Shown here: positions 48,068 through 62,528 of the stretch, one piece after another
How the letters are laid out: every line of letters starts with the position of its first letter
Position numbering within the stretch: the first letter of the stretch is position 1
Origin: a virus
Length of the DNA stretch: 64,000 bases
IMG/VR virus record: IMGVR_UViG_3300009161_000003
Span: 48,923 to 112,922 of that record
Direction: 5' to 3' (one strand)
The notes under the pieces: generated by a model
The model's database searches: none
Seen by the model: only the letters and a program-made list of their open reading frames with translations
What the model was told of the DNA's origin: nothing
Program-made: the position numbers and the translations under genes

Positions 48068-49189
48068 TTAGGAAGCAGCAATGTCCTTATAGGCAATTGC
48101 GTCTTCTTCTTCAATTTGAACACCAAAACGTACGAATACGGTGTATTCAATTGTATCTTTCTTTGGAACATATTGACGATTGACGGTAATATCCCGTTGG
48201 AATCCCCAAATACGGTTCTGTGGGAAAGTAAGATCGACATAATCTTCTGGATAGTAAGGAACTTCCATTACGTCAACGCCAAGTACACGAGTGGTACGGG
48301 CTCCTCCGAATGTCTGTCCTACACCATCAAGATAGTCTTGACGATTTGCTTGTGTGCTACCGTTACGGCTTGAGAAAGCCTCAGAGATAGCATCTGCAAG
48401 GGTACCGTTATTTTTAACGATACTTTGGAATACGTCTGTACCTGCATAGAACTTAAGATTGTTCTTAAGTGCACGATACTTACGTGGCATTGCATTGATA
48501 ATGCCTTGCATAACTGGAGTTGTCCAGTTATCTGATACAACTGCTGGGAGAACTGCATCGTGTGCTTGTCCCGCTCCAGTTCCTGTTACAATTTTTTTCT
48601 TAAAGCCTTCCATAATAGAAAGGAATGATCCTGTTGAACCATCTCCGTTAATAGCCAAATCTTCGATATCATTACCGAATGCGTTGGTCATCAAACGAAC
48701 AAGATGATCTTCAAGAGCAGCACCTTCAATATTATCTTCTAGACCTTCTGATGTAACTTCCCAATCAAGACGAATCTTTTTGGTTGTTAATTCTACTTTA
48801 GAAAAAGTAGCACCAGCGTTTGTATATGCACCACTGCCTTGAGCAGCAGCACGAATTACACGCTCACCAACGTTAACTTTTTCAAGTTCCATTGTATTTG
48901 CTCGCATTGTAACTCTACGTCCATCTTTTGCAAGAACAGTTGCATCCCAAACATAGTCAATAAATTGACGAGCCTGCTCAGGTCGTAGAATTCCACTACC
49001 TGCTGCACCCGAAGGATTTACAGCGTTTGGTCCAGTTGTGACTCCGGAAAGAGCAGTAGGAATATTTCCTAAAACTCCTGATGCTGGAGTTGATACTCCA
49101 CCAATTCCACCAGAGGCGAATCCACCTTCAGCGTTATAAGCGCCTACAACGGAGTTTCCTGGTTGGTTTTTAATAATTTCTTCTGACAT
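48068..49189 (-). CDS. Major capsid protein (HK97 fold)
   Basis: G.LRPEQA..FID, LTTKKIRL.WE...E.LEDNIEG and FGND.EDLAINGD motifs; GGAGG SD; follows the protease and precedes a terminator. Confidence 0.9.
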   Translation of the reverse strand: MSEEIIKNQPGNSVVGAYNAEGGFASGGIGGVSTPASGVLGNIPTALSGVTTGPNAVNPSGAAGSGILRPEQARQFIDYVWDATVLAKDGRRVTMRANTMELEKVNVGERVIRAAAQGSGAYTNAGATFSKVELTTKKIRLDWEVTSEGLEDNIEGAALEDHLVRLMTNAFGNDIEDLAINGDGSTGSFLSIMEGFKKKIVTGTGAGQAHDAVLPAVVSDNWTTPVMQGIINAMPRKYRALKNNLKFYAGTDVFQSIVKNNGTLADAISEAFSSRNGSTQANRQDYLDGVGQTFGGARTTRVLGVDVMEVPYYPEDYVDLTFPQNRIWGFQRDITVNRQYVPKKDTIEYTVFVRFGVQIEEEDAIAYKDIAAS

Positions 49190-52535: not shown

Positions 52536-55500
52536 TTATGCTGGAGGTAATACAGAACTTTGCCAAATAGCGTCTTTAATTACAGAAACCTCATCTGTTT
52601 CTATGTAAATTCCTTCATTATCATCTATAATAATTTTATTTGTTCCAGTATAGTTGTTATAAACCTCACCAGCATTAACAATATACCTACTGTCCCTTCT
52701 TTTAACTAAAACGTTATTCCAATCTGCAATTGCAAAAGCACTTGTAATATTGTCCCAATATCCCCAACTTTCTTCCTCAACCTCTTCCCAAGACCTGTAA
52801 ACGTTGGACAATTCCAACTGTGATCTTGTTCCTTTATAAAAAGAAATATTGTTAAATGTCATAAGATTTCTTAAATTAATCTTTCCATTAAAAGTATTAA
52901 AGTTTAAGTTTGTTGGAAAAGACATGCCTAAAACTGTCCATCTCTGAATACTAAGCGTTGGATCAGAAACATACAATCCGTCTACATAATAATCAATTAA
53001 ATTATAAGGAAGGTTGTCAGATTTTGTTTTTGCAAAAATTCTTCCTCTATCTGCATTTGATGAGTTAGCCTGAATATAAAATTGTAAAGTATCAACAGCA
53101 TTTTCTATTTCAAATATTAAAACTGGGTTTTGTGGAAAACCCCATAAATCTAATCTTAAAAATAATTGCATTGCACTTATAGAAAAAAGATCTATTTCTG
53201 TTGGATTAACATCAATAGATATTCCACGATATAAGTTAGTTGTTCCTCCTATTAATTCAATACCGCTTTTTCTTGTTAGGTAAAGATATGGTGCACTTTC
53301 TTTGTCAATTAAGTATGAGTTTTGAGCCTTGTAATCATACAATTCTGTTGATCCAGATTCTTGCTCTAAAACATACGGCTCTATATCTATTGCGTATCTA
53401 GTTGTTATTGGATTAGGAACTGTTGCATTAAAAGTTTTTGCAGCAAGTTCTAATTTTCTTAAAGAAACTTGATTGTGTAAAATGCCAAAAACTTTAAAGG
53501 TTAAAAGATAAACTATTGCAAGATTATTAAAGTCAACTGTTTTTGATGGATAGATTAAGTAGTTGTCAACAATTTCAAACCTTTTTGTTTCCCAATTTGC
53601 TTCTTCATTTAAATCAAGAATTTTATTTTTAAGTGCTGGCATTGTTGTTGTGTATTCAAAATCTGTTTGTGTAACATTTTCTAAAATATTTTGAAAAGTA
53701 ACAAATGCTCTTACGTTAGAATTATCTGTATTAATTGACTCACTATTATCTATCCAATATCCAGACTCTTCTCCACTTTCTTCATCTTGAACTTCTGATG
53801 GTGATGGATAGTCAAGATTAAATTGAATAAAATCAATGTCTAAAACTGTTTCTTCTAAAATATTTAAAGAGTTTTTTGCAAGGGACGACAATGGAGTATA
53901 AGATTCCCAATAACCAAATGTTGCAATATCAATAAAAAATCCACCATAGTCTTCAAAAGAAAACAGGCTATAACTTCCAACATGATCAATAAAATTAGCA
54001 TTTGCAACTGCAGTTCCGTCTTCTTCAAAATAAGTGCTTATTGTATTTGTATGTTTAAAAGTATTTAAAGATACTTTATAAATATTGCCAGTAAACATAT
54101 TTGATGCATTAGGCCTACTTCCAACATATAACTTTAATGACGATGGGTTTGAAAAAAATTGAGATAATCCATCTACTAGACTTTCTTCAAGTAACTTTGA
54201 TATTTGAATTCCCGCAGAAAAAATTCCTGTTGGACAGGCTACTGTTTTAATAACTACTGATGGATCTCCTGGAGCAAGATTGTGTCTAAATAAATATTTT
54301 AAATTTCCTGATTCTCTTTCAATACTAAAACTGCTACTTTCTTTTTGTAAAAACAATAAAGTTCCATTTGTATTTTCTGTAACTTTAAAAGTTCCAACAA
54401 TTGAATCTAAAGAGTTAGAAAGAAAGGAAAGGTTTTCAAAATAAACATAAGAATTGCCAGTCCATTGATTGGATGGTTTTAAAGTAAAAAATTTATTTGT
54501 TTCATTTTGAATTAATTTATTATCGGCTTCTAATTCTCTGATAGTCTTTGTTCCAGAAGATCCAGTTAGAACAAAGTTGGGCAGGCTATAGTTTGGTGTT
54601 TTTAATCTTACAACATCTGGAATTAGTGTATCTGCTGATCCAGAACTCCAGGCTCTAGTGGTTGGAAAAGTAACGTTGTTACTATAATTTGCAAAAGAAT
54701 AATCTATTTCTGCAGTAGAACCCCCATAATATGAATCTATAATCTGTGGTGTTCTTGGAACTCCCTGACCTAAAATATAATGAATTTTTGCAGCATTGTT
54801 TAAAATAGAATAAGGATATATAGCAATACAATCTATTTTAATTTGATCTACAAGAGTTTCATAAGCGTAAATTCCAATCCAATCATTACTCTTGGTAGAG
54901 TATTCAACTGAATATTCAGGTGGGAGGGTCATGGTAGAAGTGTTTATTGAAAGAGTTCCAACATCTTCTCCGTTTACCATAAGTGTTGCTTGATCTCTAA
55001 TAAGTTTAATATGAATAATCATTGGCCTAAACCATTCGCCAACATAATGTGAAACAAAGTTTCCATCAATAGCAAGAGTTAAAAAACAATCTTTTACATA
55101 TAAACCATCTGTTGATGATATTGGACCTAAAATTCTTTTTGCATCTACTGTGTTTGCATCTGCTTGTAACCAAAATTCTAAAGTATAATTATTGTTTCTT
55201 CCAGATTCATTTAAAAATCCATATCCTGGAAAAATAAATGATGGTTTAGTATTAATAATTAAATCTTGTTCTTCTGTAAAAAATTTAACATCTGTCCATG
55301 ATTCTTGTTGATCTTCCCAATAACTCCAACTTTCATCTTGAACTTGATCCCAGGTTCTATAATCAATTACCTCTGAGTGTGGAATTATTTCAACAGCCCT
55401 AGCAGAACCATAGACAAGGGGAACACCAAAATTTTTGGCAGTTAAAGAATTATGTTCTACAACATAATATCCTTTTTCTGCATTAAGTCCATAAGCATCT

Positions 55501-56183
55501 GCATCAAGAACTGCTTCCAATGACAAATTTATGTTAGTTGGAAAAGTTCCTTTTGTTTGACCCAATGATGTTGCATTAAACTCTTCGCTATGTTGACCTA
55601 TAGCAATACCATTAAATTGAACATCATAATCTCCTGCGGACCCTCCATTAGAAGATATAATTTTAAAAACAATTTTAAACTCTGCATTAATATTTTTTGG
55701 AAATGTAAATGTTTTTGAAATTGGAATCCAGCCATTTAATTCAATATCTGTAATAGTTTCAAATACTGAAGTTACTACTGCTGGATTTCCACTTGAGTAT
55801 TCATATCCAATAGCAATAGATTGAATCTTTGAGGTTTTTGCATAATAGTATGTGCTTATAGCAAAAGTTTGCAGTGGAGCATTTAACTCTTGAAAGTTTA
55901 TTAAATTTGCACTTTTTAAATAAGAGGTTACTGCTGCACCAGTAGGAGTTGTTGGAACAAAAACCTTACGATGACTATTTGTAAAAGGCTCTGTTTGCTC
56001 TATAAAATTTTCTACTGGAACTGATCCTGATGTGACTGTTCCGTTTGTTAGAGTCCAAGTACTGATATTTCTTTGTACTTCTGATATTAAAGATATGTAA
56101 TCTGCTGAATCATCTAATGGCCAAATTGCAAGCGGATGCTCGGCAAAAATTTTCTCGGCATATAAATTAGAAGCAGTAGTCAT
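52536..56183 (-). CDS. Large putative virion protein with LamG/ConA-like domains
   Basis: P.AIWPLDD N-terminus; YTLEFW, L.VNGE and LYVG LamG-like motifs; 1215 aa. Confidence 0.55.
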   Translation of the reverse strand: MTTASNLYAEKIFAEHPLAIWPLDDSADYISLISEVQRNISTWTLTNGTVTSGSVPVENFIEQTEPFTNSHRKVFVPTTPTGAAVTSYLKSANLINFQELNAPLQTFAISTYYYAKTSKIQSIAIGYEYSSGNPAVVTSVFETITDIELNGWIPISKTFTFPKNINAEFKIVFKIISSNGGSAGDYDVQFNGIAIGQHSEEFNATSLGQTKGTFPTNINLSLEAVLDADAYGLNAEKGYYVVEHNSLTAKNFGVPLVYGSARAVEIIPHSEVIDYRTWDQVQDESWSYWEDQQESWTDVKFFTEEQDLIINTKPSFIFPGYGFLNESGRNNNYTLEFWLQADANTVDAKRILGPISSTDGLYVKDCFLTLAIDGNFVSHYVGEWFRPMIIHIKLIRDQATLMVNGEDVGTLSINTSTMTLPPEYSVEYSTKSNDWIGIYAYETLVDQIKIDCIAIYPYSILNNAAKIHYILGQGVPRTPQIIDSYYGGSTAEIDYSFANYSNNVTFPTTRAWSSGSADTLIPDVVRLKTPNYSLPNFVLTGSSGTKTIRELEADNKLIQNETNKFFTLKPSNQWTGNSYVYFENLSFLSNSLDSIVGTFKVTENTNGTLLFLQKESSSFSIERESGNLKYLFRHNLAPGDPSVVIKTVACPTGIFSAGIQISKLLEESLVDGLSQFFSNPSSLKLYVGSRPNASNMFTGNIYKVSLNTFKHTNTISTYFEEDGTAVANANFIDHVGSYSLFSFEDYGGFFIDIATFGYWESYTPLSSLAKNSLNILEETVLDIDFIQFNLDYPSPSEVQDEESGEESGYWIDNSESINTDNSNVRAFVTFQNILENVTQTDFEYTTTMPALKNKILDLNEEANWETKRFEIVDNYLIYPSKTVDFNNLAIVYLLTFKVFGILHNQVSLRKLELAAKTFNATVPNPITTRYAIDIEPYVLEQESGSTELYDYKAQNSYLIDKESAPYLYLTRKSGIELIGGTTNLYRGISIDVNPTEIDLFSISAMQLFLRLDLWGFPQNPVLIFEIENAVDTLQFYIQANSSNADRGRIFAKTKSDNLPYNLIDYYVDGLYVSDPTLSIQRWTVLGMSFPTNLNFNTFNGKINLRNLMTFNNISFYKGTRSQLELSNVYRSWEEVEEESWGYWDNITSAFAIADWNNVLVKRRDSRYIVNAGEVYNNYTGTNKIIIDDNEGIYIETDEVSVIKDAIWQSSVLPPA

Positions 56184-56216: not shown

Positions 56217-58256
56217 TTAGTTACTAGTTTCTAATTTTATTTCACAGTAATCTGTTGTGCAATACATTTCTCCAACGGAATCAAGATTCTCAATACCGTC
56301 ATAAATTGCATCAAAATTAATGTGAGAAACCTTTCCAACATAGCCATCATATTCTTCTTTAGTGATTTGTGTGTATGGCTGTTGTGGATAAGTATGATTT
56401 CCCATTGGAAGGAAAGAAACTGCTTTTAATTGACCTTCGTACATATGAAGTGCTGGAGCAATATGTTTTGTTTCTGTTTCTTTGTCAAAAGACAAGGTTA
56501 CAGATACTCCATTGTCTGACCAATACTTCTGTGTTGTTGCAGCAAGACCAATCTTTTCAAACAAACTTACATCCTTCTCTGATCTTGGATGTCCGGAAGA
56601 TACTGGGAAGTATACTACTGTAGTATTTGCTGATACTAAATCGTCTTCAATTCTATATCCTGCTGCTTTAAATAAATGTAGCATTGGATCTGTATTTCCA
56701 AAACGAATTGCACGTAAGAAGTATTCTCCACCAACAGACCAGTGAACTCCTGGAGATGCTCCAGAAAGTAATGAAACTGATCCTGAAGGTTTCACGGTAG
56801 TTACACGAATTGATTCACGAACACATAGCCATTCTGAATATCGCTTATCATAATGACGAATCTTGTTGTATCCTTCGTCCATCCACTGTCTGGTTGTTGG
56901 CATTCCGTTTGTATCAGTAAATGATGCAATGCCAGTTAACGATGTTCCAATTCTACGGTTTCTTTGCATAATACCGTTTGTAATTTGCCAATGTGTTGGA
57001 AGCAATGTTACAGTCTTTCCATAAAGATATGCAAACTTTAAAGTACGCATAAAATCTTCTTTATCTGTATGACGATTTAAATGAACCTCAACTAATGTAC
57101 ATAACTCATAAGATTCTAGTGGTTGTTCTGCACAAGGATTGAATCCCATAACACGATAGTCTTTTCCATCTGCTGGATCTGCTAGTCTTCCATAATTTCT
57201 TGCAACATCAAGCCAAATAAAACCAGGCTCTCCATTATCTGCAATTAAATCCACATAATCTTCATAATGAGTTCCAACTTCAGCAGAAATAGAGTTATTG
57301 CTCATCCATGCCCATCCTGGATTTTCTGAATCAAACGAGTTACGATCTGGAAATAGTTCTGAATTTTTAAGATTAATAAAATCTTTATCGTTTGGATTTC
57401 CAAGAGCAAGTGTTGCAGATCTGCGAACATTGCCAGAAACAACACACGTTCCAATAAGATTTACAATATCTACAATTGCTCTAGAATCAAACTTCTCTCC
57501 TGCTCTAGAGCCAATTACTTTACGGATCATTGTATGTAGATCTATTAATGGTTTTGGACCGCTTGCAACGCCACCAAAGCCCTTAATTGGGGCTCCTAGA
57601 GGGCGTATCAGATCATAGTTAAATTCTTGAATTGTTTGATTTGCTCTTAAGAATGAATTGAGCAAAAGTCTAACGGATTCTACCCATCCTTCACGAGTAT
57701 CTGGAATTTCATATACAGATGCTGGTTCTGTTGGTGCATAAATAGATAGATCTTTTTCTTGACCTACCGTGTCAAATCCAACTCCAATACCAAGCATTAA
57801 TGCATCCATAACCCAAGCAAATAAAGATCCTGGATCGTTACGATCAATATCTCTTGTTGAAACCATTGCACAGTTCTGAAGAGATGCAGAGTTTTTTCTT
57901 TCCATTGTCATTGGGGTACCAAAAGCCCAAAGACCTCTTCCTGGAGGTGTCCACTTAAGATTAAACATACGGTCATATGCTTCTTGTGCTGATTTTTGTG
58001 CTTTATAATCATTCCAAGGCAGTCTGTTTTCTTTTGCGTGATTCTTCTGTACTGAATACATACCCTCGATTACTCTTTTACAAACCTCATACCATCTTTC
58101 CTTAGTGCCATCATCTTTTACACGGGAGTAAGTACGAACAAAAGTAATCTCTCCTAATGAGTTTCCACCTGCATCTTTGAACCCAAATGGTGGTTCAATC
58201 TCTATATATTTGTTTACAAAATCATCAGAAAAGCGAAAAGAAAATACGTCAGACAC
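56217..58256 (-). CDS. nrdJ: Class II (adenosylcobalamin-dependent) ribonucleotide reductase, monomeric RTPR type
   Basis: RTYSR, PPGRGLW, NC, GNVRRSA, NPCAEQ.L, TVKPSG motifs and C-terminal C...C. Confidence 0.95.
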   Translation of the reverse strand: MSDVFSFRFSDDFVNKYIEIEPPFGFKDAGGNSLGEITFVRTYSRVKDDGTKERWYEVCKRVIEGMYSVQKNHAKENRLPWNDYKAQKSAQEAYDRMFNLKWTPPGRGLWAFGTPMTMERKNSASLQNCAMVSTRDIDRNDPGSLFAWVMDALMLGIGVGFDTVGQEKDLSIYAPTEPASVYEIPDTREGWVESVRLLLNSFLRANQTIQEFNYDLIRPLGAPIKGFGGVASGPKPLIDLHTMIRKVIGSRAGEKFDSRAIVDIVNLIGTCVVSGNVRRSATLALGNPNDKDFINLKNSELFPDRNSFDSENPGWAWMSNNSISAEVGTHYEDYVDLIADNGEPGFIWLDVARNYGRLADPADGKDYRVMGFNPCAEQPLESYELCTLVEVHLNRHTDKEDFMRTLKFAYLYGKTVTLLPTHWQITNGIMQRNRRIGTSLTGIASFTDTNGMPTTRQWMDEGYNKIRHYDKRYSEWLCVRESIRVTTVKPSGSVSLLSGASPGVHWSVGGEYFLRAIRFGNTDPMLHLFKAAGYRIEDDLVSANTTVVYFPVSSGHPRSEKDVSLFEKIGLAATTQKYWSDNGVSVTLSFDKETETKHIAPALHMYEGQLKAVSFLPMGNHTYPQQPYTQITKEEYDGYVGKVSHINFDAIYDGIENLDSVGEMYCTTDYCEIKLETSN

Positions 58257-58356: not shown

Positions 58357-59073
58357 CTATTTATAACTTTTTTTATGCCAATAAAATTTTTTATATCCTC
58401 CAGTAAATAAACTTCTAACCTTTTTTCTTTGTTTAACTATAATATTAAAATCAAAATCTTTATTAAAATCTGCAACCCAATCATTTCTTTTAAATGGAAA
58501 CACTTGAACCAATGGAGTTCCTTTTTTAATTGTTCCTTTAAATTCTTTATCTACAAAAAATGAAAACAAACCATCTGATAAAAGAGTGTCTGTATCAATA
58601 ATTGCAGAAACTGCATGCAATGGAATATAATCTTGGTGTTGTGGCTCCATAAATAAACAACTATATCCTTTTTCTGTTCCTACTACCCAAGCCATATTAA
58701 CTCTAAATAAATACTCTGTAAAAAAATTATGATTAAATGGATAATGAGATATTTGCCCCATCTTGTGAGAACCAATAAGAGGTGTATTTAATTTTTTATA
58801 TTCTTCTGGTATGTTAAAAATTTTATTATTTTCAGTCGTATCAATTTCTATATCTACTGGACATAACAATAAATATCCACTAGTTATTATATCAAAAATT
58901 GCTTGGCAACCTTTTATTGTTGTTACATCAACTGGTTGATTTTCTTGCACAATATAACTAGGTTGGTCCTTATACCATTGCGGAATATTTTTTGACATTG
59001 GTATTGGTGCAGGAAAAACATCAATCATTTTTGGATAAAGATAATTAAATGATATTTTTTTATTTTCTTCCAT
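58357..59073 (-). CDS. Conserved phage protein (DUF6065-like), paralog of 503..1237; leaderless
   Basis: Shares motifs with 503..1237; TGCTATAAT 6 nt upstream of the ATG. Confidence 0.6.
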   Translation of the reverse strand: MEENKKISFNYLYPKMIDVFPAPIPMSKNIPQWYKDQPSYIVQENQPVDVTTIKGCQAIFDIITSGYLLLCPVDIEIDTTENNKIFNIPEEYKKLNTPLIGSHKMGQISHYPFNHNFFTEYLFRVNMAWVVGTEKGYSCLFMEPQHQDYIPLHAVSAIIDTDTLLSDGLFSFFVDKEFKGTIKKGTPLVQVFPFKRNDWVADFNKDFDFNIIVKQRKKVRSLFTGGYKKFYWHKKSYK

Positions 59074-59088
59074 TAATAAATTATAGCA

Positions 59089-60345
59089 TTAGTCTGGTCG
59101 GTCAAATGCTAACATGTTTTCAGTAAAGAAGTTATCATATGGTTCACAGTTAATAGATATTTTATCCATTTGAACTTCTATATTTTCAATTCCTGAAATA
59201 GGTACCCAAGTTCCTTGTGCATAGTTATAAACTTCATAAGTACTATCTATGTTTGGTGTTTGTAAAAATTGTGTAATTCCATCTTTTTTAACTAAAACAT
59301 AGTGTCCGTGTGTGTATAAAGTTCCATTGATATAAATAAAACTTTCAGCAGTTCCTGGAATTACAGACATAACAGTTGTTTCAACAACACGATCATTTGT
59401 TAAATCTATGTCAGAAGATGTCCACTCTGTCCAATTTGTTGTTACTGTATCTTCACCTAAATCCATTGCATATATAACATCTCCAACAACTAAATCTTCA
59501 ATAAACTTAGTGCCTGTTGGTGTCAATACTTTTGTTTGAACTGCAATTGAATCTCCCCAAGAATGATATCCAAAGAAATATGCACCGAAGGCACCGAAGG
59601 CACCAAAGGCACCGAAGGCACCGAAGGCACCGAAGGCACCGAAGGCACCGAAAGCACCAAAGGCACCGAAGGCACCGAAGGCACCGAAGGCACCGAAGGC
59701 ACCGAATGGAGTAAAACTAAATGCTGCAGGTGTTGTTACTACATTAGAGGATGCTGAGTTTGCTGAGTTTCCATTAGCATTTGTTGAAAATACTTGATAG
59801 GATTGTGATGTACCTGCAGTTTCTGCAACTAATAATGTTATGACTGCTGCTCCAACAGCATATGTTGGCCCATCAGAAGAAACTACTGTATTACCAGTAA
59901 TGGCACTTCCGCCTGTTGCATTAATTGTCCAGTTAACTGTGTCTCCTTGTGGAGCATCTCCATATGTTGTAGTGGTTCCAATTGTTGGTGCTTGAGGTAC
60001 TGTTGTTGCAGTAATAGAAGCAGATGCACTTGATTCAGCAGATGATCCATAAGCACTATTTGCTACTACTGTAAATGTATATGCTGTGTTTGATTGAAGT
60101 CCAGTAACTGTAATTGGGGATGTTGCTGATGTTCCAGTAAAAGATCCTGGAGAAGATGTCGCAGTATAGTCAGTTACTACAGCAGTATTTCCTGAAGTTG
60201 CAGGGGTAAAAGTAATAGTTGCAGAACCATTATTATATGGTCTTGAAGTTCCAACATTTGTTGCAGTGCCTATTGTTGGTGCATTTGGAGCAACAAAGTT
60301 ATCCTGTGCTGCTGACTTAATACCTTTTTTTCTACCTGCTGCCAT
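59089..60345 (-). CDS. FN3-domain protein with (FGA)14 tract and C-terminal Hint-like domain
   Basis: Two FN3-like units (P.APTIGT, ITVTGL...TAYTFTV.A). Hint-like blocks SIAVQTKVLTPTG.K.IEDL.VGD.I, ING...THGH.V.V and I.CEPYDNFF.EN.L. Confidence 0.8.
   Translation of the reverse strand: MAAGRKKGIKSAAQDNFVAPNAPTIGTATNVGTSRPYNNGSATITFTPATSGNTAVVTDYTATSSPGSFTGTSATSPITVTGLQSNTAYTFTVVANSAYGSSAESSASASITATTVPQAPTIGTTTTYGDAPQGDTVNWTINATGGSAITGNTVVSSDGPTYAVGAAVITLLVAETAGTSQSYQVFSTNANGNSANSASSNVVTTPAAFSFTPFGAFGAFGAFGAFGAFGAFGAFGAFGAFGAFGAFGAFGAFGAYFFGYHSWGDSIAVQTKVLTPTGTKFIEDLVVGDVIYAMDLGEDTVTTNWTEWTSSDIDLTNDRVVETTVMSVIPGTAESFIYINGTLYTHGHYVLVKKDGITQFLQTPNIDSTYEVYNYAQGTWVPISGIENIEVQMDKISINCEPYDNFFTENMLAFDRPD
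59581..59706 (-). repeat. 9-bp tandem repeat x14 (TTCGGTGCC) encoding (Phe-Gly-Ala)14
   Basis: 126 bp = 14 units; variants occur only at synonymous third positions. Confidence 0.97.
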
Positions 60346-60368
60346 TTTGTCCTCTTCCTATTAATTTA

Positions 60369-62528
60369 TTATGCTGACAAATCTCCCATTACAACCCATG
60401 TATCTGTTGCTCTTTTGAAAAGAGTTGCAGATGACCATTGTGTACGTAACTTTAATCCAGGAGTACTGTTTACTGTTACTCCTGCTGCTCCAGCAATTGT
60501 TACTTGTCCCGCTCCAGTTTGTAATACATCAATAGAAGTTCCTACTGGAAATGCTGTTGTTGCATTTGTTGGAATTGTTAAAGTAGTTCCGCTTGCGCTG
60601 CTAACTTCAATTAAGTTATCTCTAAGAGTTAATCCACCTGTTGATAAGTTATAAGATGCTGTTTGTTGAGAAATTGGTGTCCGTGATACAACACCTTCTT
60701 TAGTTTGTGTACCGTCGGTAAAAATAAATCCACCAGCAGTTGTGCTAAGAACCGCAGTTCCGTTAACCTTTAAATCTTTTCCTGAAGCAAGGTCAATATT
60801 CTCGGAAGATGTCCAAGAAGAAGTTGCATTAACCCAGTTAAAAGTTTTATTTGTTGCACCATTAAGTGTGATACCTCCACCATCAGCAGTGGTATTTGTA
60901 GGTGTTGCAACATCTCCAAGAACAATATTTTTATCTTCAATAACTAAGTTAGTTGAGTTAAGATTTGTAGTTGTTCCATTTACCGTCAAATCTCCAGAAA
61001 GAGTTAAGTTTACTGCTGTAGCAGTTCCAGTAAATGCTGGTGCTGCAAGTGGTGCCTTAGCGTCTAACTGTGTTTGAATTGCTGAAGTAACTCCATCAAC
61101 ATATCCAATTTCAGTAGAGGATACAGTTGAAGAAATACCAAGTTTGGTCCAGCCAATTGCTGCAGATGCGTTAATGTCAGCATCAACAATTGTTCCATCA
61201 AGAATTTTTGCAGAAGTAACTGCACCATCTGCTAAATCTCCAACAACAATTGTTCCATCAGCAATCATTGCAGATGTAACGGTTCCTGAAGGAAGAGTTA
61301 CTGTTCCTGTGAATGTAGGAGAGGCTAGTGGTGCTTTAGCATTTAATTGTGTTTGAATGGCTGAAGTTACGTTATCAAGATAACCAATTTCAGTTGAACT
61401 TACGGTTCCAATTGAGGTATTTGCAGGAAGAACGGTATCTCCAGTAAATGTTTTTGCTCCTCCAATTGTTTGAGCACCTGATTTAAGCACAATGTCGGAT
61501 GTGTCTGAAATACCGTGAACACTTGTTGTATCTTGTTCATGAGAGGTAACATCTGCTACTAGTGCAAATGTTCCTGTTGCATCTGGAATCATTATTGTAC
61601 GATCTGCTGTAGGATCTGTTACTGCTATGGTGGTTTCAAAAGCGTCTGCTGTTGTACCCTCAAAAGTAATACTTCCAGTAAATACTCCGGCATTTGTTAT
61701 ATCTGTTAAGTTTCCTGTTGTAATAACTGTTCCTGTTGCATCTGGAAGAGTAATGGTGCGGTCTGCAGTTGGGTCTGCTACTGCTAATGTAGTTTCAAAA
61801 GCATCTGCTGTAGCACCTTCAAAAAGAAGTGAAGTGGTAAAAGTTTGTCCCGATGCTACTGCACTATCTACATATGATTTATTTGCTGCATCTCCAGTTT
61901 GTGTTGGTGTTGCTATGTTAACAATCTTATAAGTATTATCTAAATCAATATTTCCAGTCATTACTCCGCCTGATTTTGCTAAACGAAGTAATACATCTGA
62001 TGATAATGCTACTGTGCCAGTTGCATCAGGTAATGTAATTGTGCGATCTGCTGTGGGATCTGTTACTGTTAAGGTAGTTTCAAAAGCGTCTGCTGTAGCG
62101 CCTTCAAAAACAATTCCTGTTGTAGCATTAATTGTTGTGCTGTTAATAGTAGTAGTTGTACCACTTACTGTTAAATCTCCTGATACTGTAACGTTTCCAC
62201 TACCGTCGGCCAAAACGACTGTACCTGTTGCGTTTGGAAGGGTAATGGTACGGTCTGCTGTAGGGTCTACTACTGCTAGGGTAGTTTCATAAGCGTTTGC
62301 TGTAGTACCTTCAAAAGAAATACTTGAACCAAATTGGGGATTTACTGTGCTGTCTGAGTCAATAAAGTAATCAAGGTTGATCCAGTGGTTTGTGCCATCA
62401 CCAATTTTAAACTTATTAGTATCTGACTCGTAACCGATTTCTCCGGCTGCAAGGATTGGGCCGTTGCCACTGTTGGTTGATATCCACTGGGCTGCAGTAC
62501 CCCTTCTCTGTTGCATTCTTGTTGCCAT
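60369..62528 (-). CDS. Tail fibre protein with Mtd/hyaluronidase-like N-terminal domain and internal repeats
   Basis: MQQRRGTAAQW...L.AGEIGYE.DT.KFKIGDG N-terminus; repeated fibre modules; C-terminal W...GDL. Confidence 0.8.
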   Translation of the reverse strand: MATRMQQRRGTAAQWISTNSGNGPILAAGEIGYESDTNKFKIGDGTNHWINLDYFIDSDSTVNPQFGSSISFEGTTANAYETTLAVVDPTADRTITLPNATGTVVLADGSGNVTVSGDLTVSGTTTTINSTTINATTGIVFEGATADAFETTLTVTDPTADRTITLPDATGTVALSSDVLLRLAKSGGVMTGNIDLDNTYKIVNIATPTQTGDAANKSYVDSAVASGQTFTTSLLFEGATADAFETTLAVADPTADRTITLPDATGTVITTGNLTDITNAGVFTGSITFEGTTADAFETTIAVTDPTADRTIMIPDATGTFALVADVTSHEQDTTSVHGISDTSDIVLKSGAQTIGGAKTFTGDTVLPANTSIGTVSSTEIGYLDNVTSAIQTQLNAKAPLASPTFTGTVTLPSGTVTSAMIADGTIVVGDLADGAVTSAKILDGTIVDADINASAAIGWTKLGISSTVSSTEIGYVDGVTSAIQTQLDAKAPLAAPAFTGTATAVNLTLSGDLTVNGTTTNLNSTNLVIEDKNIVLGDVATPTNTTADGGGITLNGATNKTFNWVNATSSWTSSENIDLASGKDLKVNGTAVLSTTAGGFIFTDGTQTKEGVVSRTPISQQTASYNLSTGGLTLRDNLIEVSSASGTTLTIPTNATTAFPVGTSIDVLQTGAGQVTIAGAAGVTVNSTPGLKLRTQWSSATLFKRATDTWVVMGDLSA
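61570..62320 (-). repeat. Four dispersed copies of a ~32-aa fibre module FEG.TA.A.ETT..V.DPTADRTI..P.ATGT
   Basis: Visible in both protein and DNA. Confidence 0.9.

Follow-up and report, generated by a model that had tools for sequence, protein, structure and literature searches.

A phage fibronectin type III protein with a phenylalanine-rich tail and a C-terminal Hint domain, a candidate self-removing cap

The window (the whole stretch of DNA analysed here; 64,000 nucleotides, positions 48,923 to 112,922 of IMG/VR virus record IMGVR_UViG_3300009161_000003) comes from a single phage genome of 112,922 bp and 34% G+C, with a 2829-amino-acid (aa) open reading frame (ORF) and genes for portal, protease, and capsid. 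This report concerns the last gene of the tail-fibre operon, on the minus strand at 59089..60345 (418 aa and stop codon according to the ORF list; >1500 homologues). From its N-terminus, the encoded protein consists of a conserved basic peptide (aa 1–22, ..KKGxKxxAQDNFxxP.., 60280..60345 minus; from the compared N-termini of 60 homologues); a first fibronectin type III (FN3) domain (aa 24–113, 60007..60276 minus); a second FN3 domain (aa 120–205, 59731..59988 minus); an aromatic low-complexity tract (aa 206–265, 59551..59730 minus; delimited by repeat analysis and relatives), which holds an exact (FGA)14 array in the protein sequence (aa 214–255, 59581-59706 minus) and ends in ..YFFGYHSWGD; and a C-terminal Hint domain resembling bacterial intein-like (BIL) and Hedgehog (Hog) domains (aa 266–418, 59092..59550 minus), with its core ending in ..LAFD and an RPD tail. 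An earlier description made from the letters alone (hereafter the sequence-only reading) had given the architecture as two FN3-like domains, FSFTP-(FGA)14-YFFGYHSWGD, and a C-terminal domain of ~150 aa, and this is confirmed here.

Recognition of the Hint domain depends on a family alignment; single-sequence searches are insufficient, and phmmer of the query against PDB returned FN3 only, without recovering Hint. An exhaustive HMMER search with aa 262–418 gave 140 clusters (50% identity); with few exceptions the domain lies at the extreme C-terminus, in proteins of 150–1300 aa. Pfam matches among 91 relatives were to Intein_splicing (22), PT-HINT (14), Hom_end_hint (8), and Hint_2 (3). The profile of these 91 relatives matched the BIL structure 2lwy from Clostridium in PDB (E 4.7e-12), and several inteins too; in the alignment with 2lwy, Ser266 is paired with residue 1, TxxH coincides with block B, and the C-terminus matches the His-Asn block. 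The AlphaFold model of aa 262–418 (predicted local distance difference test, pLDDT, 93.4; predicted template modelling score, pTM, 0.88) has the horseshoe-shaped, all-beta fold of the Hint superfamily. Its best Foldseek match in PDB is Tetrahymena BIL2 (6y75; E 9.5e-8, template modelling score, TM, 0.70), other top matches being 2lwy, the gp41-1 intein, and Hedgehog 1at0 (probability 1.00, TM ~0.7); in a viral structure library, the closest models (TM 0.82–0.89) are uncultured-phage proteins with the automatic names 'Hint domain containing', 'PASTA_pknB', and 'Fibronectin type III'. The sequence-only reading had recognised Hint-type blocks in the C-terminal ~150 aa and had named failure to model as a Hint fold among its grounds for refutation; model, structural matches, and family profile agree on a Hint fold, in which neither the N-terminal nucleophile nor block B is lost.

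The predicted nucleophile is Ser266 (codon at 59548..59550 minus; placed by alignment to residue 1 of 2lwy), and the predicted scissile bond is Asp265-Ser266. Block B is present as Thr345-His-Gly-His348 (TxxH, 59302..59313 minus; according to conservation in 190 aligned domains and block B of 2lwy). Position 1 is Ser in 141, Cys in 58, Ala in 12, and Thr in 1 of 212 relatives (Ser/Cys 199/212, 94%); for 142 viral-locus domains the counts are Ser 77 and Cys 61, with 4 unaligned (Ser/Cys 138/138 aligned). Across the 190 aligned domains, position 345 is Ser/Thr in 97% and position 348 His in 98%, and the best-conserved columns (Thr271; Gly278; Val-Gly-Asp287–289 of block A; Ser/Thr345 and His348 of block B; Glu401-Pro-x-Asp404) are those required by Hint chemistry. 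At the other end of the domain, position 414 is His in 91, Phe in 54, and Tyr in 27, position 415 is Asp in 120 and Asn in 55, and the +1 position is unconserved; the query has Phe414-Asp415, then Arg-Pro-Asp and a stop codon. Because there is no His-Asn end and no C-extein, and +1 is unconserved, only N-terminal cleavage at Asp265/Ser266 is possible, and on the sequence both splicing and a Hedgehog-type adaptor region are excluded. The query thus lacks the C-extein, +1 nucleophile, and terminal Asn or His-Asn of inteins, the sterol-recognition region after the Hint of Hedgehog/Hog proteins (3 residues follow the core), the C-terminal His-Asn of BIL type A (Phe-Asp in the query), and the PF13884 match and Ser-x4-Lys dyad of Peptidase_S74; its motif pattern is compatible with BIL type B. 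With a Hint fold and both the nucleophile and block B intact, cleavage at Asp265/Ser266 is the expected chemistry, and from sequence and model cleavage by the Hint domain at this bond appears most likely. No second Hint copy was found in the present phage genome.

The FN3 half agrees with the two FN3-like domains seen in the sequence-only reading. Pfam fn3 matched aa 36–108 (E 4.7e-5; 24 bits, 1 bit short of the gathering cut-off of 25), phmmer aligned titin FN3 tandems over aa 33–194, and the full-length AlphaFold model (61 homologues) has beta-sandwiches at aa 24–113 and 120–205 (pLDDT >90), for which Foldseek returned tandem FN3 pairs (NCAM, neogenin) over ~207 columns (E ~1e-9, 1.5e-9). 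The C-terminal domain, too, is modelled with confidence in this full-length prediction.

The tract between the two halves carries no charged residue ahead of Asp265. Its DNA repeat has a period of 9 and 13.9 copies (score 229, Tandem Repeats Finder); TTCGGTGCC accounts for 11 of the 14 units, and all 4 differences are at synonymous third positions, as the sequence-only reading had stated. Repeat codons are TTC/GGT/GCC, against TTT/GGA/GCA in the remainder of the gene. Judging from unit identity, exclusively synonymous differences, and distinct codon use, the (FGA)14 array looks recently expanded. By our own estimate, four random changes would all be synonymous with a chance of ~0.5%, and the stronger evidence that the peptide matters comes from the relatives rather than from these DNA differences. 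In the FN3 subfamily the tract is always Phe-rich, with the units FGA, FGAFGFTP, FGFTP, FSPFGV, FFPP, FFPFFPP, and FxPY and a period of 3 to 7; phages 87% identical to the present one have (FGA)12, and in others the copy number is 9, 8, or 7. More distant Hint-bearing proteins have poly-Pro, poly-Gly, or His/Tyr/Gly-rich sequence in the 40 residues before Hint, and mean sequence entropy is 2.77 bits in these 40 residues against 3.63 bits inside the domain. Comparison of homologues, which the sequence-only reading had proposed, thus finds FN3 and Hint conserved and a low-complexity tract present at this position and polymorphic. The composition of the tract is kept and its register is not, which favours a flexible or cohesive tail over a collagen helix; aa 210–262 have no confident structure in the full-length AlphaFold model (pLDDT 34–50). 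An uncharged Phe-rich tail of this kind is a candidate adhesive or assembly element. A match to the NCBIfam His-Xaa-Ser repeat family HxsA4 (25.9 bits, cut-off 55) was rejected as a low-complexity artefact.

The scaffold is abundant (>1500 protein matches, >400 viral loci), and across viral loci the same core of FN3 and aromatic tail occupies the same position after the fibre gene. In a census of 182 IMG/VR loci, 137 have a Hint end, 36 have no module and end shortly past the aromatic tract or in a short or Cys-rich tail, and 9 run off the locus. Hint-less forms do not represent split genes, a possibility ruled out for 32/33 loci examined: a Hint domain in any frame within ~5 kb is absent from these 32, L134 alone having a frameshifted Hint, and the conserved C-terminal region of the fibre lies immediately upstream in 31/33. 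Cores with other ends were sought with aa 1–265 alone. Seven of the listed proteins are forms of 235–237 aa that stop a few residues past the tract (e.g., ..FGFSPPFR), and two database proteins, P0301 and P0323, carry Peptidase_S74 instead of Hint (E 7e-12 and 9e-13, respectively). Their junction ..NWYS/DERVK.. has the Ser-x4-Lys spacing of the S74 catalytic dyad; this Ser-Lys dyad is described in PMC8326128. In P0057 and P0118 the Hint domain is another, canonical one that starts with Cys; that of P0057 also ends in His-Asn. The FN3-FN3 unit with its aromatic tail is thus invariant, and the C-terminal end is an exchangeable accessory.

Several further kinds of relative were seen. Cys-rich C-terminal tails (e.g., ..GCSGCVRSYCWQACPACCGGCGC or ..NWYGCAGWC) form a third kind of end in Hint-less relatives; short Cys-rich tails occur in L153, L156, L157, L158, and L170 (FFPP type); L055, L080, and L175; L040, L174, and L176; and L077. 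Among 91 proteins with the present Hint clade, PASTA domains replace FN3 in 20, true collagen repeats are found in 1, and Peptidase_S74 is found in 1; with such partners, the C-terminal Hint module serves several kinds of display domain. Two Hint-ended genes lie ~6–12 kb apart in IMGVR_UViG_3300032326_001363 (L020, L024) and in IMGVR_UViG_3300042945_001689 (L028, L033), one gene of each pair being a shorter form with a single FN3; the present genome has one Hint-ended gene. Dickeya phage AD1 gp108 (L001, 5017-6456) and its Erwinia Alexandravirus relatives, jumbo-phage proteins labelled 'virion structural protein', combine collagen GXY repeats, an Ig-like region, and a canonical C-terminal Hint, which starts with Cys, contains TxxH, and has His-Asn, then Thr and a tail of 9 residues at its end. 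No full-length relative was found among INPHARED phage records, in which Hint-domain relatives are only distant (Alexandravirus and a Yersinia phage, 24–28% identity), and a scan of prokaryote genome contigs with the domain found no close relative. The cluster names of relatives read 'hypothetical protein' only.

A conserved nucleophile, a conserved block B, and an end that can be exchanged, also for S74, are best read together as a self-removing cap. On sequence and model we hold it to be probable, with considerable reserve, that the C-terminal Hint domain is a removable, self-cleaving cap. Ser266 would attack the carbonyl of Asp265 in an N-to-O acyl shift assisted by Thr345 and His348, and water would resolve the resulting Ser266 ester. 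This would release a 265-aa protein of FN3, FN3, and aromatic tail, with the tail as free C-terminus, and the Hint domain would be discarded. The working part of the gene product is best explained as the basic N-terminal peptide, the two FN3 domains, and the uncharged Phe/Gly/Ala tail of ~60 residues, the tail presumably having a target to bind. Until folding or assembly, the Hint cap would keep this aggregation-prone, sticky tail soluble or inactive. By analogy, such a cap would be best explained as working in the way of phage tailspikes, whose C-terminal chaperone cleaves itself off. The case for cleavage is strengthened, as far as sequence comparison goes, by the Hint-less forms that end past the tract and by the forms that carry S74.

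Several points weigh against the self-removing cap. The same Hint-less forms imply that a cap is dispensable, and its benefit is thereby undefined. The query alone matched Pfam Hint_2 at E 0.16 only, and its penultimate His is absent (Phe414). In the clade with Ala at position 1 (12/212) the Thr at domain position 6 (block A) is lost too and the domain is retained, so that a non-catalytic role is viable and the fold can persist without its nucleophile. A Ser nucleophile gives an oxyester, which is hydrolysed more slowly than a thioester, and this applies to Ser266. Finally, as regards placement on the virion, the label 'virion structural protein' on the distant Alexandravirus relative is annotation only, and the paper on Dickeya phage AD1 gives no mass spectrometry behind it.

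The Ser266 ester might instead be attacked by another nucleophile (a lysine of a virion protein, a lipid, or a component of the host envelope), in a Hedgehog-like transfer for which Hint would act as a single-use, built-in 'sortase' that ligates the C-terminus of the tail covalently to its target. Such transfer is unlikely. A C-terminal Hint without C-extein is the Hedgehog arrangement, and a Hedgehog domain is among the fold matches; most relatives examined have a flexible low-complexity stalk (aromatic, poly-Pro, or poly-Gly) before Hint, resembling those upstream of anchoring signals; and BIL domains are known to cleave or ligate their flanks (PMC7765530). The 3 residues after the Hint core, however, leave no adaptor region of the sterol-recognition kind, natural Hint-less forms at the equivalent genomic position simply have a free tail as their end, S74, where it replaces Hint, does nothing but cleave, and Hint is accompanied by no gene that could be an acceptor or partner. 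With nothing specific in its favour, we give transfer a low probability, and equally doubtful is its fuller form, a single-turnover ligase that would join the aromatic tail to an acceptor in the virion or host envelope and so build or anchor an appendage. Were a ligase of this kind real, the many proteins of uncultured phages with a poly-Pro, poly-Gly, or aromatic stalk and a C-terminal Hint would represent a general self-anchoring system.

Retention of the Hint fold as a distal structural or binding domain that does not cleave, with the full-length 418 aa as mature form, is no more probable than transfer. The domain persists in the clade that has Ala at position 1 and whose block A is degenerate, the query lacks the penultimate His, and the Hint part evolves fast and independently of FN3, as receptor-binding tips do, next to a ribonucleotide reductase (RNR) that is >=96% identical. 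Against such a knob, conservation in the family falls on the catalytic residues (Ser/Cys at position 1, Thr271, TxxH, Glu-Pro-x-Asp) and not on a surface patch, and the domain can be replaced by nothing or by a self-cleaving chaperone. A (Gly-Ala-Phe)14 collagen-like triple helix or obligate trimeric shaft with the C-terminal domain as trimerisation nucleus, the Gly-X-Y helix of the sequence-only reading, is dropped as very improbable: it could appeal to the strict period of 3 with Gly at every third residue in the query, to a weak Pfam Collagen match (E 0.009), to the trimer-dependent cleavage that the S74 variant implies in those lineages, and to true GXY collagen repeats before Hint in the Alexandravirus relative, but that match reaches 16.2 bits under a cut-off of 27.2, the register is unconserved among relatives (FGFTP, 5; FSPFGV, 6; FFPP/FFPFFPP, 4/7), the query tract as weighed here is without Pro and without charged residues, the model of the tract has the low pLDDT given above, and we know of no Hint domain that serves as a trimerisation module. 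A three-copy co-fold of aa 1–265 scored 0.00, which is no answer and speaks neither for nor against trimerisation.

Several known systems are close to the predicted cap. BIL domains (2lwy of Clostridium thermocellum; BUBL BIL2 of Tetrahymena, 6y75/6tmm) are the best structural and profile matches to the query Hint and, like it, are found in variable, non-conserved proteins and not in conserved enzymes. Cleavage at their flanks does not require splicing; type A has a conserved C-terminal His-Asn, and type B has the N-terminal intein motifs, lacks the C-terminal motif, and cleaves at the N-terminus (PMC7765530). In contrast, the query domain is strictly C-terminal with a 3-residue tail, has Ser instead of Cys as nucleophile and Phe-Asp instead of the His-Asn of type A, and is encoded within the fibre operon of a phage, where it follows an aromatic repeat. 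The Hedgehog Hog/Hint domain (1at0/6tyy) is likewise the C-terminal Hint of a two-part protein and is among the fold matches; an acyl shift at the first residue of this Hint sets the N-terminal part free, as is predicted for the query, which differs in having no sterol-recognition region, Ser in place of Cys, a phage origin, and no signal peptide. Peptidase_S74 (endosialidases; T5 L-shaped fibre; GA-1 gp12 appendage) is also a C-terminal module on a phage fibre or spike, and it replaces Hint on the scaffold of FN3 and aromatic tail in P0301 and P0323. It is an established self-cleaving intramolecular chaperone that is cut off after its job (PMC8326128), but it has nothing in common with Hint in fold or chemistry, relying on a Ser-Lys dyad in a trimer where Hint relies on an acyl shift. 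The FG-repeat domains of nucleoporins share an uncharged, Phe-Gly-rich low complexity in which composition prevails over register; this is a resemblance only, without homology, and the present tract is far shorter and stands in a phage fibre operon. Tailed phages carry Ig-like/FN3 decoration domains, such as Hoc of T4, and their FN3/Ig-fold modules, which have genes in structural operons, are proposed to confer weak adhesion to surfaces; these domains were the subject of a survey by Fraser et al. 2006. The FN3 modules of the present protein are similarly encoded in a structural operon, and we know of no phage decoration domain of the Ig-like/FN3 kind with an aromatic tail or a self-cleaving Hint end.

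To our knowledge, self-cleaving C-terminal modules on phage fibres have so far been known only from the S74 chaperone family. Literature searches brought up no description of an FN3-aromatic-Hint phage protein, nor any work on Hint as the C-terminal end of phage fibre-module proteins, on Hint/S74 exchange, or on the Phe-rich tail. Already known are Hint domains, BIL domains, and self-cleaving fibre chaperones, and some relatives have been annotated automatically as Hint-containing; new here is the arrangement of FN3 and aromatic tail capped by Hint, common in uncultured phages, with an end interchangeable with S74 or nothing. Hint, with the chemistry of inteins and Hedgehog, occupies the place of S74 on a very common scaffold of uncultured phages. 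If the cleavage is true, it would be a second, independent way to cap and release the ends of fibres, would extend Hint domains beyond selfish inteins and toxins to a role in structural virology, and would provide small, Ser-type, N-cleaving Hint modules that work beside extreme low-complexity sequence.

The gene is tightly packed in its operon. It starts 23 nucleotides past the stop of a 719-aa fibre gene, its operon partner (60369..62528 minus; Pfam Mtd_N, PHROG tail-fibre families, synteny), with a ribosome-binding site AGGAAGAGG at 60351-60359, 5 nucleotides upstream of the ATG, and a 238-aa DUF6065-like gene (58357..59073 minus; phrog_7084, protein-atlas clusters) begins 15 nucleotides downstream. 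The gene order in 34 IMG/VR loci is fibres, a 158-aa gene, the 719-aa fibre, the 418-aa gene, the DUF6065-like gene, class II RNR, and a 1215-aa gene. For the 238-aa gene no Pfam or NCBIfam match was found; its nearest protein-atlas clusters are viral, with DUF6065 in ~20% of the members. It is syntenic in most related loci and sometimes duplicated. As a Hint-specific partner or modifying enzyme it was rejected, being present in Hint-less loci too, and the idea of the sequence-only reading that the protein is chemically modified, as a substrate of phage enzymes, finds no support. The term 'virion appendage' from the same source has only the operon position and the annotation of a distant relative as its basis; placement on the virion would be in keeping with both, and the basic N-terminal peptide may be the docking end.

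The class II (B12-dependent) RNR (56217-58256 minus) is flanked by the fibre operon on one side and by the 1215-aa gene and portal on the other. It is 96–99% identical to that of the window in many related loci, in which the FN3 and Hint parts are 37–91% identical and the structural genes on either side fall to 35–65%. FN3 and Hint parts vary independently (L006, FN3 40% and Hint 76%; L012, FN3 61% and Hint 37%). The 1215-aa ORF (52536-56183 minus), between RNR and the portal region, had no Pfam, PHROGs, or NCBIfam match at the thresholds used. The last ~130 aa of the 719-aa fibre (60369-60761 minus) keep ~55–80% identity beside the FN3 gene while the rest of the fibre diverges; this fibre end and the basic N-terminal peptide (..AQDNF..P), both conserved in sequence, may form a docking pair.

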